The position numbers and the translations under genes were made by a program. The notes beneath the pieces were generated by a model. It was not told where the DNA came from. It saw only the letters and a program-made list of their open reading frames with translations, and ran no database searches. From Candidatus Sericytochromatia bacterium (GTDB lineage Bacteria; Cyanobacteriota; Sericytochromatia; S15B-MN24; UBA4093), in the NCBI GenBank assembly GCA_036676985.1, contig JAKFBU010000026.1, forward strand, positions 192,001 through 256,000: 64,000 nt of DNA, in the 5' to 3' direction. Shown piece after piece: positions 17,075 to 64,000 of the stretch; position 1 is the first letter of the stretch, and every line of letters begins with the position of its first letter.

Positions 17075-17138
17075 AAAGCCGTCGAGCGTGGGGTATAGGA
17101 GGGGAGCGACCCTAAGCCATGACCCATGGATTCATCGC

Positions 17139-18269
17139 GTGAGCGTCCAGAAGCGCAAGCAGGCCAAGGCCTTCCAGAATCTCGCCACCAAGCTCCCTCT
17201 GGCGAACACCGCCGGGGCGCTCTTGGTGCTCTATGGCGCGTCACAGGCCTTCGGGCTCGGCGAGGGCCAGGGCTTCGTCCAGTGGGTCTACGGCCTGGTG
17301 GGCGGTGTGGTCGGTTTCCTCATCTTCGGGGTCATCCAGAAGCCCATCCGGGCCTACGAGCACAAGGTCAAGATCAAGGCCCGTGAGCTCGCCCAGAAGA
17401 TGGAGGCCAAGATCGACGAGGAGCAGGGCGGCCTCAACAAGCTCCTGGACTCCTATGAACTGCACTACCTGGGTGGCCATCCCGGTTGGCCCCTCAAGGA
17501 CAAGGTGGAGTTCGGCCTCCTCGACCTGCACGAGAAGTCCCTCTTCTTCAAGAACAAGGCGAACCGCATCAAGTTCCAGCTGGCGCGCGTGAAGCGCATC
17601 TCGGTCGAGCCGGAGAAGGTGATCCGCCTCAAGAAGCTGTCGACGGTCGTGTTGCCCAAGCCCAAGACGTACAAGAATGCGATCGTGGGTCGGGTGATGG
17701 CGGAGCTCGTGAAGCGCCAGCGCTACGTGGTCATCGATTATCTGGACGATCTGGGCGAGAAGCACCTGGTGGTCTTCCAGGCGGTGGGTGGCAACCCGTT
17801 CGTGGCCAAGGCGGTCAAGGCGGCGGTGGACGAGGTCCACAAGAAGATTCCCAAGGACAAGAAGGGGGCGGTCGAGAAGGCGCCGGGGCTGCAGCAGGCC
17901 TCGGACGAGGCGCTTGCTGCCGCGGAGGCGGCTTCACGCCAATCGCAAGGGTATCGTTCGGCTCATGCGGCGCCCGCGACAGGCGCCTTGGCGTCGTCGA
18001 CCGGTACGTTGCCCGCCGCGGGCGAGGTGCGTTACCAGGTGGTGCTGGACTACGCGGGCGCCACGCCGGAGGAGCAGTCGCATGTGGCGACGCAGATGGC
18101 GAGCCTGTTCAACATCCCGGCGGACAAGGCCATGGCCGCGGTGCAGCGCGTGCCCTTTGTTGCGAAGCGCAACCTGAACCCGGATCAGGCCCAGCGCCTG
18201 GTCTCCGCTCTCACCGCCACCGGCGCCTCGGCCCGTGCGGAGGCCATGAACCAGGCTCCGGTTTCCTAG
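17139..18269 (+). CDS. Hypothetical membrane protein with C-terminal ribosomal L7/L12-CTD-like domain
   Basis: Two N-terminal TM helices, Lys-rich cytoplasmic domain, C-terminal YQVVLDYAG...AMAAVQRVPFVAKRNLNPDQAQRLVSALTATGA; start uncertain (17088 or 17139). Confidence 0.7.
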   Translation: MSVQKRKQAKAFQNLATKLPLANTAGALLVLYGASQAFGLGEGQGFVQWVYGLVGGVVGFLIFGVIQKPIRAYEHKVKIKARELAQKMEAKIDEEQGGLNKLLDSYELHYLGGHPGWPLKDKVEFGLLDLHEKSLFFKNKANRIKFQLARVKRISVEPEKVIRLKKLSTVVLPKPKTYKNAIVGRVMAELVKRQRYVVIDYLDDLGEKHLVVFQAVGGNPFVAKAVKAAVDEVHKKIPKDKKGAVEKAPGLQQASDEALAAAEAASRQSQGYRSAHAAPATGALASSTGTLPAAGEVRYQVVLDYAGATPEEQSHVATQMASLFNIPADKAMAAVQRVPFVAKRNLNPDQAQRLVSALTATGASARAEAMNQAPVS

Positions 18270-18306
18270 AGCTTACCGGGGCTTTCTTCCTTTAGGCGTT
18301 CGTCGG

Positions 18307-18346
18307 CACTCCCGTCACCCTCGCGTAAGCGGGGGTCCATCGTAGC
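18307..18346 (+). repeat. CGTC-tagged REP palindrome, left flank of GIY-YIG gene
   Basis: CACTCCCGTCACCCTCGCGTAAGCGGGGGTCCATCGTAGC; inverted match to 18667..18706 with 3 mismatches in 40 bp. Confidence 0.9.
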
Positions 18347-18348
18347 GT

Positions 18349-18648
18349 CTACGGTGTTCCGATAATTTCCGGATAGAGGTCACGCCACATTGGATTCGAC
18401 TGCTCGATAAGCTGTATCTTCCAATCGCGTAGCCACTTCTTGAGCGCCTTCTCGCGTTGGATGGCGCTAACCATCGTCTCGTGGCGTTCGTACCAGACCA
18501 ATTGATGGATCCCATAACTACGGGTGAACCTTCCGCCTGCGTCATTCTTGTGCTGCCAGACACGCTTCATGAGGTCTGAGGTCACTCCGATGTACAGGGT
18601 TCCATGGCGGCGGTTTGCGAGGATATAGGTACAAGGCTCTCGATGCAA
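18349..18648 (-). CDS. Stand-alone GIY-YIG nuclease family protein
   Basis: TYILAN...TLYIGVTSDLMKRVWQHK, AIQREKALKKW..WKIQLIE..NP.WRDLY; TTG start after AGGAG; visibly lower GC than neighbours. Confidence 0.92.
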   Translation of the reverse strand: MHREPCTYILANRRHGTLYIGVTSDLMKRVWQHKNDAGGRFTRSYGIHQLVWYERHETMVSAIQREKALKKWLRDWKIQLIEQSNPMWRDLYPEIIGTP

Positions 18649-18666
18649 AGCATTCTCCTGGGTGTG

Positions 18667-18706
18667 GTTACGCTGGACCCCCGCTTGCGCGAGGGTGACG
18701 GGAGTG
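18667..18706 (-). repeat. CGTC-tagged REP palindrome, right flank of GIY-YIG gene
   Basis: Reverse complement CACTCCCGTCACCCTCGCGCAAGCGGGGGTCCAGCGTAAC. Confidence 0.9.
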
Positions 18707-18849
18707 GTGACGGCAGGTTCAAATTTTCTGCTTATCGACGATTTTACGTTATTATGTCGAATGTGTGCGACTGCTTTGAAAATCCTGGCAGAGGGGCGTT
18801 CGGGGACCTGAAACGATCCGTATCTGGCGCCATGAGCCCAAATAAGGCC

Positions 18850-18992: not shown

Positions 18993-19283
18993 ATGCAACG
19001 CGCCTACGAAACCATGTACATCCTGCGCCCCACTCTCGAAGAGGAGGCGGTGGACGCCGTGGTCACCAAGATCAACGACCACATCACCAAGAACGGTGGC
19101 AACGTCGAGAAGACCGAGAAGCGTGGCCGCAAGCGCCTGGCCTATGAGGTCAAGGATTTCCGCGACGGTTTCTACGTTTTGAGCAACTTCACGGCCGACC
19201 CCGCGTCGATCACCGAGTTGGAGCGCGCTTTCAAGCTCAACGAGGATGTGATCCGTCACATCGTCGTCCGGCCTGAGGCGTAA
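18993..19283 (+). CDS. rpsF: 30S ribosomal protein S6
   Basis: YETMYILRP, GRKRLAYEV, EDVIRH. Confidence 0.97.
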   Translation: MQRAYETMYILRPTLEEEAVDAVVTKINDHITKNGGNVEKTEKRGRKRLAYEVKDFRDGFYVLSNFTADPASITELERAFKLNEDVIRHIVVRPEA

Positions 19284-44197: not shown

Positions 44198-44289
44198 CGT
44201 CATTCCCGCGAAAGCGGGAATCCAGCGGGACCGACCGCGGCGACTTCTGTACGGCGCTGCGCTGGCCCCCCGCTTTCGCGAGGGTGACG
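44198..44289. repeat. Inward-facing REP doublet (REPIN-like)
   Basis: CGTCATTCCCGCGAAAGCGGGAATCCAGCG (44198-44227) and reverse CGTCACCCTCGCGAAAGCGGGGGGCCAGCG (44260-44289). Confidence 0.85.
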
Positions 44290-49872: not shown

Positions 49873-50060
49873 GGGTTTCTCCTTAGGACGAGGGAACCTT
49901 CGCATGTTAGCAGCCGGAGCCCACTGGAGGCAAAGGCCCGGGGCATCCCTCGCCCGAGGCCCGCCGAAAGGGAGGAAACTGTTGGGTGAGTCGGGTCTTC
50001 GATGGGGGGCGGGGCAAACGTTATCGTGTCGGTGATTCCCACCCGCTTCGAGGAGTTGCT

Positions 50061-51113
50061 ATGCACATCGGCATGTTGGCCCCGATCTGGGAAACCATCC
50101 CCCCGCAAGGCTACGGGGGGATCGAGCGAGTAGTCGACTTGCTGACGCGCCAGCTGCTGGCCCGTGGCCACCAGGTGACCCTGTTCACCACCGGAGACTC
50201 CCGGAGCGAGGCCGAGTGCCTCTGGACCGAGCCTCAGGCCCTTCGAGTGCTGGGCTTCGACACCTGGAGCTGCCAGATGGCCGAGGCGCTCCACGTGAGC
50301 CATGCCATGCAGCAGCGCCACCGGTTCGACCTCATGCACAACCACATGGGCCCGCTCGGCGTGACCTTCGCCGCCGCCTGCGCGGCCCCGATGGTGACGA
50401 CGCTGCATGGGCCCATCGAGCCGTCGATCGAGCGCTACTTGCTGGACTACCCCGGCCATGCCTACGTCAGCATCAGCCACGCGCAGCAACAAGCAGCGCC
50501 CTGGCTGTCCTACGCCGCCAACATCTACAACGGCATCGAACCCGACGCGTTCGCCCTCGGCCAAAAGGCAGGCTACCTGCTCTTTCTCGGCCGCATCTCC
50601 CCCGAGAAGGGGACGCATCTCGCCATCGAGGCGGCGCTCGCCGCGGACCTGCCCCTCATCATCGCCGCCAAGGTCGATCCCTACGACCGGCCCTATTTCG
50701 AGGAGCGGATCCGCCCTAGCCTCGACGGAGAGCGGATCCGCTTTGTCGGAGAGGTGGACGGAAAAGACAAGGCGGACCTCCTGAGCGGGGCGATCGCCCT
50801 CCTGCACCTGGTCCAGTGGCCGGAGCCCTTCGGGCTCGCCATGGTCGAGGCCATGGCTTCCGGGACGCCGGTGATCGCCATGCCGCACGGTTCCATCCCC
50901 GAGGTCGTCGAGCCGGGCCTGACGGGCGTCATCGTCTCGACGGTGGCGGAGGCCGTGACGGCCATCGATCAGGTGAGTGACCTCGATCCCGCGAGCTGCC
51001 GGCGCCGGGCCATCGAGCGTTTCGGCGCAGCCGGCATGGCCGCGGCCTACGAGCGCGTCTACGAGGAGCTGCTCGCCGGGCAGCCCGGCCAGCTCCGGGA
51101 GCTCGAGGCATGA
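50061..51113 (+). CDS. Glycosyltransferase family 4
   Basis: PPQGYGGIE, LGRISPEKG, WPEPFGLAMVEAMASGTPV. Confidence 0.9.
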   Translation: MHIGMLAPIWETIPPQGYGGIERVVDLLTRQLLARGHQVTLFTTGDSRSEAECLWTEPQALRVLGFDTWSCQMAEALHVSHAMQQRHRFDLMHNHMGPLGVTFAAACAAPMVTTLHGPIEPSIERYLLDYPGHAYVSISHAQQQAAPWLSYAANIYNGIEPDAFALGQKAGYLLFLGRISPEKGTHLAIEAALAADLPLIIAAKVDPYDRPYFEERIRPSLDGERIRFVGEVDGKDKADLLSGAIALLHLVQWPEPFGLAMVEAMASGTPVIAMPHGSIPEVVEPGLTGVIVSTVAEAVTAIDQVSDLDPASCRRRAIERFGAAGMAAAYERVYEELLAGQPGQLRELEA

Positions 51114-53368
51114 ACGAGGAACCCGAGTTCCGCTCGTCCGAGGTCTACGAGGTCGAAGGGGAGATCCTCGAGATCGACCACGAGCTCACCGAGCTCATCC
51201 GCTCCGGACTGCCGGCCGTGGTCACGGGCTGCCGCCACGAGCCGCAGGTGCTCAAGCAGGGCCGCCACTTCATGGTCGCGGACCGGGACGGCGGCATCTA
51301 CGGGGGCTGCAAGTGCGGCATGGGCCTCTATCGAGAGGACACGCGCTTTCTGAGCGGCCTCGACTTTCGCCTCGAGGGCGAGTCGCCCACCCTGCTGTCG
51401 GGCTCGACCGAGCGCATCAACACGGGCCACATCGAGTACATGAACCCCTCTTTGGAGCTCGCGAACGGCACGCGCATCCGCCAGGAGACCGTCCAGATCT
51501 CGGTGGTCCGGGCGATCGCCGACACCTTTCGCGAGCAGATCCGGATCATCAACTTCAACGCCGAGGCCGTCACGCTGCGCTTGAGCCTCGCCTTCTACTC
51601 CGACTTCGCGGACATCTTCGAGGTCCGCGGCCTCCACCGGCAGGGCCACGGCATCTACTTCTACCCCAAGCTCACGGACGACAGCCTGACGTTGCGGTAT
51701 CAGGGCGGGGACGGCCTCTTGCGGCAGACCCGCGTGACCTTCGACCAGCGCCCCGTCGACATCGCCGCGACGCCCTACGAGCATGCCTCGGTCGGGGCCG
51801 TCGCCCACTGGGAGATCGCCGTGCCGCCCAACGGGGGGCAGGCCCTGCTTGAGTACCAGATCGAGACCATCGAGGGCAAGGCCGAGCCCAAGGGGGGCGG
51901 GCCCTTTTCCGTGTACCTCCAAGACGTCGGGCGGCTCATCGACCCGAGCGTCGACTTTCCGACCCGCATCCAGACGGACAACGCCGTCTTCAACCTCGTC
52001 TGGAACCGGAGCGTCCGGGACCTCGTGGCCCTCACGAGCCACTACCCGACGGGCCCGTTCGTCGCGGCCGGCATTCCCTGGTTCACGTGTCCCTTCGGCC
52101 GGGACGCCCTCACCACGGCGCTCCAGACCTTGATGCTCGGCCCCAAGATGGCCAAGGGTGTGCTGCGCTTCCTGGCGGCTCACCAGGGCAAGCAGGAGGA
52201 TCCCTTTCGGGACGAGCAGCCCGGCAAGATCCTGCACGAGCTGCGCTTCGGGGAGCTGGCGCGGCTCAAGGTCATCCCGCACACGCCTTACTACGGCACG
52301 GTCGACGCGACGCCCCTGTGGCTGATCCTTTTGAGTGAGACCTATCGCTGGACCGGAGACGCCGAGCTCGTCCACGAGCTGTGGGACAACGTCGAGGCGG
52401 CCCTCTTGTGGCTCGAGACCTACGGGGACATGGACGGCGACGGCTTCGTGGAGTACCACTGCCAGAGCCCCAAGGGCATCCGCAACCAGGGCTGGAAGGA
52501 CGCCTTCAACTCCGTGATCTTTCCGGACGGGACGCTCGGCGAGTCGCCCATCGCCCTCTCGGAGGTCCAGGGCTACGTCTACGACGCCAAGCTCCGGGCC
52601 GCCGAGCTGTGCCGGGTCGTCGGCCAGGAGCTCCTTGCCCGACGCCTCATCCGGGAGGCCGACGAGCTCAAGGAGGCCTACAACGAGACCTTCTGGTCGG
52701 AGGAGCTGGGCTTTTACGCCATGGCCCTCGACAAGCGGAAGCTGCCCGTCTGGACGCCGACCTCCAACCCCGGCTACGGCCTCTGGAGCGGCATCATCGA
52801 GCGGGAGCGCCAGGCGAGCGTCGTCGCCTGCATGATGAGCCCCGGGATGTTCAGCGGCTGGGGGATCCGGACGCTGTCGGCGGACAGTCCCGTCTACAAC
52901 CCCATCGGCTATCACAACGGGACCGTCTGGCCGCATGACAATTCCATCATCGCCAAGGGGATGGCCGACCGGGGCTTCAAGGACGAGGCCGTGCGGATCT
53001 TCGACGCCATGTTCGACGCCGCCGTGCGCTTTCCGTATTACCGCCTGCCGGAGCTGTTCTGCGGCTTCGGGCGCCAGGGAGAGCTGGACTCTCCGATTCC
53101 CTATCCGGTGGCCTGCTCGCCGCAGGCCTGGGCGGCGGCTACCCCCATCTGGCTGTTGCAGGCGGTCCTGGGGTTGCAGGCCGATGCCCCCCACCGGACG
53201 CTCAAGGTGGCCGTGCCGCGGCTGCCCGCGTGGCTCGGCAAGGTGACGATCACGGGGCTGCGCGTGGGGGACGCCACCATCGACCTGGAGTTCATGCAGA
53301 TCGACGGGACGACCACCACCCGGATCCGCAACAAGGTGGGGGATCTGACGGTCCTGATCGAGGGGTAA
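51110..53368 (+). CDS. Amylo-alpha-1,6-glucosidase (glycogen debranching enzyme family)
   Basis: AGIPWF..PFGRD, EQPGKILHELR, YYGTVDAT, NQGWKD, YHNGTVWPHDN, ACSPQAWA. Confidence 0.92.
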   Translation: MNEEPEFRSSEVYEVEGEILEIDHELTELIRSGLPAVVTGCRHEPQVLKQGRHFMVADRDGGIYGGCKCGMGLYREDTRFLSGLDFRLEGESPTLLSGSTERINTGHIEYMNPSLELANGTRIRQETVQISVVRAIADTFREQIRIINFNAEAVTLRLSLAFYSDFADIFEVRGLHRQGHGIYFYPKLTDDSLTLRYQGGDGLLRQTRVTFDQRPVDIAATPYEHASVGAVAHWEIAVPPNGGQALLEYQIETIEGKAEPKGGGPFSVYLQDVGRLIDPSVDFPTRIQTDNAVFNLVWNRSVRDLVALTSHYPTGPFVAAGIPWFTCPFGRDALTTALQTLMLGPKMAKGVLRFLAAHQGKQEDPFRDEQPGKILHELRFGELARLKVIPHTPYYGTVDATPLWLILLSETYRWTGDAELVHELWDNVEAALLWLETYGDMDGDGFVEYHCQSPKGIRNQGWKDAFNSVIFPDGTLGESPIALSEVQGYVYDAKLRAAELCRVVGQELLARRLIREADELKEAYNETFWSEELGFYAMALDKRKLPVWTPTSNPGYGLWSGIIERERQASVVACMMSPGMFSGWGIRTLSADSPVYNPIGYHNGTVWPHDNSIIAKGMADRGFKDEAVRIFDAMFDAAVRFPYYRLPELFCGFGRQGELDSPIPYPVACSPQAWAAATPIWLLQAVLGLQADAPHRTLKVAVPRLPAWLGKVTITGLRVGDATIDLEFMQIDGTTTTRIRNKVGDLTVLIEG

Positions 53369-53416
53369 TACGGCACGTCCCATGGGCGCCGTCCAAGGCG
53401 GTTGCCGGCCATGCCG

Positions 53417-53446
53417 TGGACCCCCGCTTTCGCGAGGGTGACGGGA
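53417..53446 (-). repeat. CGTC-tagged REP copy
   Basis: Reverse complement TCCCGTCACCCTCGCGAAAGCGGGGGTCCA. Confidence 0.85.
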
Positions 53447-53527
53447 GGGCCGACTTTGCGCTGACAGGTGCTTGAACTCAGGCCTGAATTGGTGCTTAAG
53501 GGGGCGTGGACTCGATGCCTGGATAGG

Positions 53528-53567
53528 CGCTCCCGTCATTCCCGCGAAAGCGGGAATCCAGCGTAGC
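53528..53567 (+). repeat. CGTC-tagged REP copy
   Basis: CGCTCCCGTCATTCCCGCGAAAGCGGGAATCCAGCGTAGC; flanks also match the GIY-YIG-flanking copy. Confidence 0.88.
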
Positions 53568-53604
53568 GACGTCAGCGGTTGCTGGCCGCAGGAAGGAACA
53601 AGTC

Positions 53605-54555
53605 CTAGATGATGAGCAGCTCGTAATCCCGCGAGCCCAGCTTGTGGCGCTCGCAGGTCTTGAGCAGGTGCTGCCAGTCCACCTCCGGGTGCAGGGAGCG
53701 GATCTTGTCCGGGGTCGAGAGGTCCGACAGGCGCGTGCCCGGGATCCCCGTCTGCATGTTGAGGAAGTCCGCCGTGGCCTGGTCGATGCCCACGGGATCC
53801 TTGGAGACGAGGAGCCCCACGTCGGGCAGGACCGCCGCGTCGCTCCAGCCTGCTCCGTCCGGGTCCGGCGTGATGTCCAGGAGCACGTTGCAGTACAGGA
53901 TCCGGCCCGGCTTGGCCGCATGCAGGGCCGTGAGGGCCTCGGCGATGGGCAGGGCGAGCTCTACGGGCTCGCTGGAAAGCTCGCCGGCGCCGACGCCCGC
54001 TGGGACGCGATCGCCGCTTTCGACCATGGCGAGCCGGGCCGCCCGGGTCATGGCCCCGAACCCCAGCTGGTACAGAGCGCCCGCGAAGCCCACGACCGGG
54101 TGCATGGTGACGTGGCTGACGACGATGAGCGTCCGGGCATGCGCCAACGCACTCGCGATGGGGGTGGCGAGGCCGCCGAGGGCCGTGCCGTCCTCGCCCG
54201 TCAGGCCGTCGGCGATGAGCACCGGCGCGCCCAGGGTCTCCGCGGTGAAGCCATGCTCGGCGGCGAGCGCCAGGTGCCCGAGTGCCTCGGTGCGCGACTC
54301 GGAGCGGCGGGCGTTGGTGTCCGTCACGAAGGGCCGGCCGCCCTGCGTTTTGACCTTGCGGACGACCCGGCGCACGATCTCCGGCCGGACATGGGTGGTG
54401 TTGCCCCGCTCGCCGAAGTGCGTCTTGATGGCCACCGGATCCCCCGGCTCCATCAGCTGGGCGAAGCCCGCCGCGTCGAGGAGCTGCTCGATCTTCTCCA
54501 TGAGGCCACCCCCACCGGTGGCGCGACGCTGGGCAAAGTAAACTTCGGCGGGCAT
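53605..54555 (-). CDS. DUF362 domain-containing protein
   Basis: VAIKTHFGERGN, PFVTDTN, IADGLTG, SKDPVGIDQA. Confidence 0.82.
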   Translation of the reverse strand: MPAEVYFAQRRATGGGGLMEKIEQLLDAAGFAQLMEPGDPVAIKTHFGERGNTTHVRPEIVRRVVRKVKTQGGRPFVTDTNARRSESRTEALGHLALAAEHGFTAETLGAPVLIADGLTGEDGTALGGLATPIASALAHARTLIVVSHVTMHPVVGFAGALYQLGFGAMTRAARLAMVESGDRVPAGVGAGELSSEPVELALPIAEALTALHAAKPGRILYCNVLLDITPDPDGAGWSDAAVLPDVGLLVSKDPVGIDQATADFLNMQTGIPGTRLSDLSTPDKIRSLHPEVDWQHLLKTCERHKLGSRDYELLII

Positions 54556-63849: not shown

Positions 63850-64000
63850 CTGGATTCCCGCTTTCGCGGGAATGACGGGAGTGCTCATTCTCGTGACAAT
63901 CGGAAGGCTCGCTTTCGCGGGAATGACGGGAGCGGTTACTCTCGTGCCAATCGAAAGACCCGATTTCACCGGTACGCCGGCGCTCCCGTCACCCCCGCGA
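63850..64000. repeat. REP cluster with 51-bp tandem duplication
   Basis: Reverse REP 63851-63880, partial reverse REP 63910-63931 within 51-bp tandem units, forward REP from 63981 cut by window end. Confidence 0.85.

Follow-up and report, generated by a model that had tools for sequence, protein, structure and literature searches.

In the window analysed here, a stretch of 64,000 nt, a short module separates the stop codon of the gene at 17088-18269 (393 aa) from the rpsF-ssb-rpsR operon, which begins at 18993. Its 99-aa ORF lies on the minus strand and is bracketed by a 44-nt repeat and an inverted copy of that repeat. The two arms (18301-18344 on the plus strand and 18669-18712 on the minus strand) are 91% complementary and have 324 nt between them. 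Each arm reads CGTC, ACCCTCGC, GTAA or GCAA, GCGGGGGT, and CCA, and the CGTC tags of both arms point outward. The published search sequence for a repeat known as SRM matches the left arm at 18313-18340 (plus strand; CGTC, 8-bp stem, 4-nt loop, CCA) and the right arm at 18673-18700 (minus strand), and we refer to the arms as the left and right SRM. As single-stranded DNA (ssDNA) they are predicted to fold at -9.4 and -7.4 kcal/mol, respectively, with modest z-scores of -2.4 and -1.6.

Apart from the gene at 18349..18648 (minus strand, TTG start), here called ssn, no sizeable ORF within the inverted repeat matches a family. The ssn product has a single GIY-YIG nuclease domain (PF01541; E = 7.9e-15, residues 5 to 78) and no other domain. 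No model in NCBIfam or PADLOC matched the protein, and PHROG gave a weak match to "homing endonuclease" (E = 0.0056). A putative ribosome-binding site (AGGAG, 18655..18659, minus strand) can be read 6 nt upstream of the TTG. Outside the right SRM, a consensus scan found a weak candidate for a sigma-70-like promoter (18751..18780, minus strand; 9/12 positions), and any transcription of ssn from this match would run through the right SRM.

The gene is present once in the genome (tblastn), and its base composition is unusual. The GC content of the ORF is 53.3%, compared to 67.3% for the genome, which places it in the lowest 1.1% of 15,553 300-bp windows, and its GC3 is 66%, compared to 96% for pheS. 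The first-pass annotation had described the locus as a unit of ~400 bp whose sole gene encodes a 99-aa GIY-YIG protein of lower GC than the host, flanked by a 40-bp inverted repeat with 3 mismatches, each copy with a CGTC tag and an internal hairpin with a GTAA/GCAA loop. These observations hold, the 40-bp repeat being the core of the 44-nt arms. With the shorter 40-bp arm, the stop codon begins 2 nt from the left repeat, as had been stated; measured from the 44-nt arm, the distance is 4 nt. The reported absence of a visible target duplication is likewise borne out, with no direct repeat seen by eye in the 20 nt outside each arm.

There are three other GIY-YIG matches in the genome. Two are internal to long open frames, one of 442 aa and one of 651 aa, and the larger of these is presumably UvrC. 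The third is a small UPF0213-like ORF (G000:C23:325277-325486, where G000 is the genome studied here) that is 30% identical to ssn and is cut by the contig end, and no tagged hairpin lies beside it on the side visible before that end.

Hairpin repeats in the window and the genome

The arms of the module belong to a repeat type, designated type A, with a conserved 8-bp stem (ACCCTCGC/GCGGGGGT) that includes one T-G pair. A sister subtype, type B, has the stem ATTCCCGC/GCGGGAAT, and its core is identical to the canonical core of the Neisseria repeat NTS. With up to 3 mismatches allowed, the 4.7-Mb genome contains 73 copies of type A and 29 copies of type B, for a total of 102. GTC stands ahead of the palindrome in every copy (73/73 type A and 29/29 type B), and the stem is followed by TCCA or GCCA in 65/73 and 28/29 copies, respectively. 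A GCGCTCC stretch immediately 5' of CGTC is also conserved and is common to both types.

These genome counts were taken from explicit patterns for the two types. The published SRM regular expression has 147 matches in the genome versus 57 to 75 in five first-order Markov simulated genomes, an enrichment of only ~2.2-fold, which reflects the looseness of the pattern at a GC content of 67%. A still looser scan (CGTC followed by any stem) was discarded, as its matches were mostly false at this GC content. A stricter tagged-hairpin motif has 188 matches in the genome versus 105 in the reversed genome and was therefore used for local enrichment only.

The 102 copies fall into 59 clusters, comprising 43 doublets and 16 single copies. 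The doublets are inverted without exception (43/43), with no direct pair among them. Fourteen have their tags outward, like the flanks of ssn, with a spacer of 37 to 38 nt in 11 of these 14 versus 334 nt in the module. The other 29 have their tags inward, with spacers of 55 to 210 nt. Types A and B are mixed in 25 of the 43 doublets, a BIME-like alternation of subtypes that is not described in the available part of the paper on the SRM system (PMC11893778).

Within the window, the core hairpin occurs four times (up to 3 mismatches) versus 0.02 expected, and none of 100 shuffles reached four. The claim that the repeat recurs without the gene at three other loci is correct if types A and B are counted together. 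One of these loci is a convergent doublet (44198..44289; B on the plus strand and then A on the minus strand, 38-nt spacer), which has the orientation of the ssn flanks and folds as one long hairpin (-36.8 kcal/mol, z = -4.5). Another is a divergent doublet (53416..53561; A on the minus strand and then B on the plus strand, 92-nt spacer), for which a long hairpin is also predicted as ssDNA (-38.8 kcal/mol, z = -3.9). The last (63850..64000) has B on the minus strand at 63850-63877 and A on the plus strand from ~63988 and is cut by the end of the window.

The doublet at 53416-53561 forms the edge of a larger indel. A segment of ~3.7 kb (~49873-53607), which carries a 3.3-kb gene with paralogues in the genome and ends at this A/B doublet, is replaced by ~85 nt between conserved flanks in one relative (G004).

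Homologues of ssn and their flanks

Searches with the 99-aa protein yielded 3426 homologues in the searched length range, and the best 120 of these (94 to 161 aa, 64 to 84% identity) span Pseudomonadota, Bacteroidota, Chloroflexota, Nitrospinota, and others. An alignment of 24 sequences has 35 invariant columns, among them the GIY-YIG signature residues, and includes Y8, Y19, R29, H33, E66, and N85 in this set; we take these six residues to have catalytic roles.

At least 600 relatives exist, and the flanks of homologues were surveyed at 80 loci, with each species represented by one genome. A tagged hairpin was counted where GTC was followed by a stem of 7 to 10, a loop of 3 to 7, and a CCA-like tail. 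Such a hairpin lies within 200 bp upstream in 57/80 loci and within 250 bp downstream in 66/80. Hairpins are found on both sides in 49/80 loci, with tags outward in 43/80. Beyond 500 bp from the gene, the same loci show a background of 39 matches in 351 kb (0.11 per kb). Enrichment of hairpins at the flanks of homologues, which the first-pass annotation had named as a check of its proposal, is therefore clear. In the commonest layout, one hairpin lies ~40 nt before the start and another lies 5 nt past the matched end. The stems vary by genome (CCCGC, CCGGC, CCAGC, CTGGC, and others) but are alike on both sides of any one gene, and the homologue flanks preserve the GTCA...TCCA frame despite this variation.

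An independent metagenome set gave a similar result for close homologues: at 58% identity or more, a hairpin is nearby in 11 of 16 loci with full flanks. Below 58% identity, a hairpin of this type was found in 1/43 loci, and other long flanking inverted repeats (score of at least 20) were found in 10/43, compared with a maximum score of 12 in 40 displaced controls. The best match in this metagenome scan was 69% identical, and the relatives with 84% and 79% identity were not returned by it. Homologues at six metagenome loci (L151, L152, L169, L129, L148, and L160), which are 51 to 56% identical, have different inverted flanking hairpins, with examples that have a GCTCAT tag in place of CGTCAT or much longer loops. 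These are possibly repeat types that lie outside the published search sequence. In one Chloroflexota chromosome, two ssn homologues occur in tandem (L001:2607-2888 and L001:3001-3285), with hairpins beside each.

Five other genomes were searched with each other's flank variants, and none of the variants was present in a foreign genome; type A was likewise absent from all five. Copies of a genome's own variant numbered 63, 46, 4, 2, and 2, and in the last of these genomes a related variant is abundant instead (38 copies). The flank variant is thus an abundant dispersed repeat in three of six genomes, including the present one with its 73 copies. It is confined to the gene or its vicinity in two (2 and 4 copies; L029 in G034 and L003 in G035) and is outnumbered by a sister variant in one. 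The idea that the flanks carry the dominant repeat of each genome accordingly applies to half of these genomes and fails in the other half. Since the variant is found only at the gene in two genomes, the module can exist without dispersed copies of its own variant.

Close relatives and insertion sites

Judged on PheS, the closest lineages to the host are Sericytochromatia and other cyanobacterial metagenome-assembled genomes, a tentative placement given that the best named matches have 57 to 61% identity. Matches to ssn were found in 4 of 30 relatives: G008 (61% identity), G018 (59%), G030 (two, 43% and 38%), and G021 (weak). Tagged hairpins lie near ssn in G008, G018, and G030, each of which has its own stem variant, and none was seen near the weak match in G021. 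From the foreign base composition of the gene and its patchy presence in relatives, we infer that the module was probably acquired horizontally.

The repeats themselves are unevenly distributed. With up to 1 mismatch, type A has 58 copies here, 1 in G001 (same genus), 3 each in G005 and G008, and 0 in the other 27 genomes. Type B has 25 copies here, 75 in G005, 32 in G008, 9 in G010, 2 in G001, and 0 in 26 genomes. In G005, which is 85% complete, ssn was not detectable with the present protein as the query, so that the 75 type B copies of this genome count against a strict coupling of gene and repeat. The gene may have been lost there, may be unassembled, or may be too diverged to be found.

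Six doublet loci on two contigs of the present genome were compared with G001, G004, and G007 for evidence of insertion. In 4/4 informative comparisons, the relative has a syntenic intergenic site without the doublet, the interval being 193 nt here versus 41 nt in G001, 165 versus 18 nt (G001), 325 versus 94 nt (G001), and 187 versus 7 nt (G007). No SRM occurs in these four syntenic intervals of the relatives. In the remaining comparisons, the G001 contig ends or there is no usable match. The absence of a doublet could reflect either gain here or loss in the relative. The intergenic DNA of G001 is too diverged for the ends of the doublets to be read to the base, and when ten convergent doublets were aligned with each other, their similarity faded ~10 to 25 nt outside each CGTC without a sharp end.

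The proposed search of relatives for empty sites was thus productive for four gene-less doublets and not for the module itself, for which no empty site was found in G001 or G007. G001 has no match to the genes next to the module. G007 has kept both neighbours, with an interval of ~0.9 kb that contains unrelated ORFs of up to 249 aa. In two further relatives, the start of a contig falls immediately 5' of rpsF, where the module is located in this genome (G002:C32 and G008:C102; L085 and L083), and these assembly breaks could be due to repeats at the same site.

Neither of two types of transposase was found in the genome, which is 100% complete by marker genes: there was no match to the Y1/RAYT transposase family (PF01797), for which a control search matched 6 of 14 well-known genomes, and none to the IS110 type (PF01548).

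Assignment to the Ssn family and predicted activity

Ssn proteins are small GIY-YIG nucleases whose genes typically have the arrangement repeat-gene-repeat, and the system of Ssn and its repeat, SRM, was described by Chenal et al. (Nat Commun 2025, PMC11893778). The available part of that paper gives the following picture. In Neisseria, the repeat is NTS (CGTCATTCCCGCGMAVGCGGGAATCYRG), which includes dRS3. SsnA, a 94-aa single-domain GIY-YIG protein, binds NTS solely as ssDNA and cuts upstream of it, leaving the reverse strand, double-stranded DNA (dsDNA), and RNA uncut. The tested members, from three Neisseria species and Wolbachia, show these same specificities for their cognate repeats and cut a few nucleotides 5' of the CGTC tag, with the GTC before the palindrome governing cutting and the C after it governing binding. 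Membership of the family is defined by a blastp match to N. meningitidis SsnA (E < 1e-10, 75% coverage) or a top CDD hit to cd10448, and a further mark of the system is at least one SRM within 500 bp both 5' and 3' of the gene; an SRM is nearby in 71% of Ssn homologues and on both sides in 42% (PMC11893778). Our literature searches found no further publication on Ssn and, judged on titles and the openings of abstracts, nothing relevant that joins GIY-YIG with repetitive extragenic palindromic sequences or RAYT.

The module very probably encodes a member of the Ssn family, judging from the features of the gene and its surroundings. The product is 99 aa long with PF01541 as its only domain, in keeping with the ~90 to 150 aa and single domain of Ssn, and the published SRM sequence matches on both sides of the gene. 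The repeats of the genome have the same orientation signals (GTC before and C after the palindrome) and are dispersed in 102 copies. The protein is 63% identical to that of a Dyella mobilis locus and 62% identical to that of an Undibacterium curvum locus, which indirectly supports the placement because Supplementary Data 4 of PMC11893778 lists both species as "ssnA homolog present."

The module is therefore a new example of the published system and not a new kind of element. The first-pass annotation had proposed that the GIY-YIG nuclease and the CGTC hairpin are a cognate pair that mirrors RAYT and REP. The homologue flanks and the published Ssn/SRM system both agree with this. The pairing was also thought to be little described; the pairing itself stands, and it had already been published as Ssn/SRM (PMC11893778). 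The further proposal, that the nuclease takes a RAYT-like part in mobilising the repeats, is a hypothesis here as it is in that paper.

By analogy with the tested members, the hairpin would fold where the DNA is single stranded, as during replication or repair or in incoming DNA, and the protein would read the GTC ahead of the stem and the C after it. The nick would then fall ~3 nt 5' of CGTC, within the conserved GCGCTCC, a position obtained by arithmetic from the published oligonucleotide lengths. On this basis, we expect that the 99-aa protein cuts ssDNA at type A. On the opposite strand, the T-G pair of a type A stem is replaced by an A-C mismatch, and the better hairpin is therefore that of the tagged strand, which fits strand-specific recognition. 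The inverted arrangement of the flanks would leave either strand of the module with one cleavable site, at its 5' end. With one site per strand, the same-strand excision scheme of IS200/IS605 cannot be transferred unchanged. We think it somewhat less probable than not that such nicks also cause repeat doublets to be copied into new sites.

Host function or spread of the repeats

Several explanations of the association between ssn and its repeats were weighed. With 59 clusters in 4.7 Mb, repeats are common here, and an ordinary small GIY-YIG gene might have come to lie by chance between two copies of an unrelated genomic REP. However, this reading is contradicted by the homologues: 49/80 loci in many phyla are bracketed alike, far above the 0.11 hairpins per kb of the background, and the flank variants differ among genomes while matching on the two sides of each gene. 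We therefore regard chance adjacency as extremely improbable. Alternatively, the gene may have a host function only, the repeats having spread by other means (such as replication slippage or recombination) and the copies on either side doing no more than regulate or mark the gene. The sole function demonstrated for Ssn is of this kind, i.e., the limitation in Neisseria of the integration of repeat-bearing transforming DNA, as seen in N. meningitidis transformation assays (PMC11893778), and the imperfect coupling of gene and repeat in G005 agrees with it. This explanation leaves unaccounted for the consistent tags-outward bracketing of the gene across phyla and the horizontal travel of the module with its own repeat variant, and we put its probability somewhat short of even.

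A further possibility is that SRM-ssn-SRM behaves, or behaved until recently, as an autonomous element of the transposon kind, with the GIY-YIG protein as its ssDNA nickase and with the gene-less doublets as non-autonomous derivatives, similar to MITEs or REPINs, that the single ssn copy has spread. This would extend the assignment to the Ssn family rather than replace it. The discussion in PMC11893778 likens NTS-ssnA-NTS to insertion sequences and to the relationship between IS200/IS605, REPs, and BIMEs, proposes domestication, and raises mobilisation by Ssn as a hypothesis. In the present genome, such a role would be consistent with one gene facing 102 repeats and with the 14 doublets that share the orientation of the module, 11 of them with a spacer of 37 to 38 nt in place of its 334 nt. 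It would also agree with the abundance of type A solely here among 31 genomes (58 copies versus 0 to 3) and with the missing doublets at 4/4 informative syntenic sites, and the genome has no Y1/RAYT or IS110-type transposase as an alternative agent. The two other genomes in which the variant is found only at the gene look as would be expected of a freshly arrived unit. Against it, transposition has been shown for no Ssn, and GIY-YIG nucleases are not known to have strand-transfer activity. The module has one copy, no visible target duplication, and no empty site found in G001 or G007, unlike an insertion sequence or autonomous transposon, and the differences in presence and absence concern gene-less doublets only, which may have been lost in the relatives rather than gained here. 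The inverted repeats, which leave one cleavable site per strand, do not suit the IS200/IS605 excision scheme as it stands, and G005 has 75 repeats and no detectable ssn. Overall, we consider it unlikely that the module is such an element. The corresponding mechanism, in which one 5' cut per strand would trigger the copying of the unit and its doublets and in which the genome would have been caught soon after a burst, would belong to a mechanistic class that is undemonstrated, and it appears equally doubtful.

Significance

As a member of the Ssn family, the present gene is a routine identification that adds a new stem variant from a poorly studied, cyanobacteria-related lineage. Its interest lies in a question left by PMC11893778, namely, whether Ssn nucleases spread their own repeats. 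The genome is a clean natural case for this question, with a single ssn, two repeat subtypes, and strictly inverted doublets, and further assets are the lineage-specific expansion of the repeats, the repeat-free syntenic sites, and the lack of a RAYT or IS110 confounder. New pairs of Ssn and repeat are also candidate reagents for cutting ssDNA at chosen sites.

Comparison with known systems

By sequence, the nearest solved structures belong to small GIY-YIG proteins of the UPF0213 type (PDB 1zg2, BH0048, E = 1.3e-5; PDB 1ywl, EF2693, E = 0.0018), a group that presumably includes proteins of the E. coli YhbQ type. These resemble the ssn product in size and in their single domain but form a distinct, distantly related family. 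GIY-YIG homing endonucleases of the I-TevI type share the catalytic domain. However, the ssn product has no DNA-binding domain, and its gene has no intron, intein, or phage context, which rules out a plain homing endonuclease; the tested Ssn relatives, moreover, act on ssDNA and not on dsDNA.

The resemblance to RAYT/REP/REPIN systems is closer. In both, a single-copy nuclease gene lies between inverted hairpins with a 5' tetranucleotide tag, many dispersed copies form mostly inverted doublets, and the substrate is a single-stranded hairpin. The first-pass annotation had accordingly viewed the module as REPtron-like. That identity does not hold, since the enzyme is of the GIY-YIG and not the HUH/Y1 type (PF01797 was unmatched in the genome) and the tag is CGTC and not GTAG. 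The module thus shares the arrangement of a REPtron without being a member of that group. RAYT/REP and Ssn are also alike in that neither has a proven copying mechanism.

The closest counterpart is Ssn itself, as represented by SsnA of Neisseria meningitidis. Both are single-domain GIY-YIG proteins of ~95 aa encoded between inverted CGTC-tagged hairpins, the GTC before and the C after the palindrome are conserved in both, the repeats are dispersed in both, and the type B repeat has the NTS core. In contrast to the Neisseria system, the flanks here have the stem variant ACCCTCGC/GCGGGGGT, which among the genomes searched is abundant solely in this one, and two subtypes alternate in inverted doublets. 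The host, too, sets the module apart, as it is probably Sericytochromatia-like, a lineage not represented among the 29 genomes from which the motif was defined (PMC11893778).
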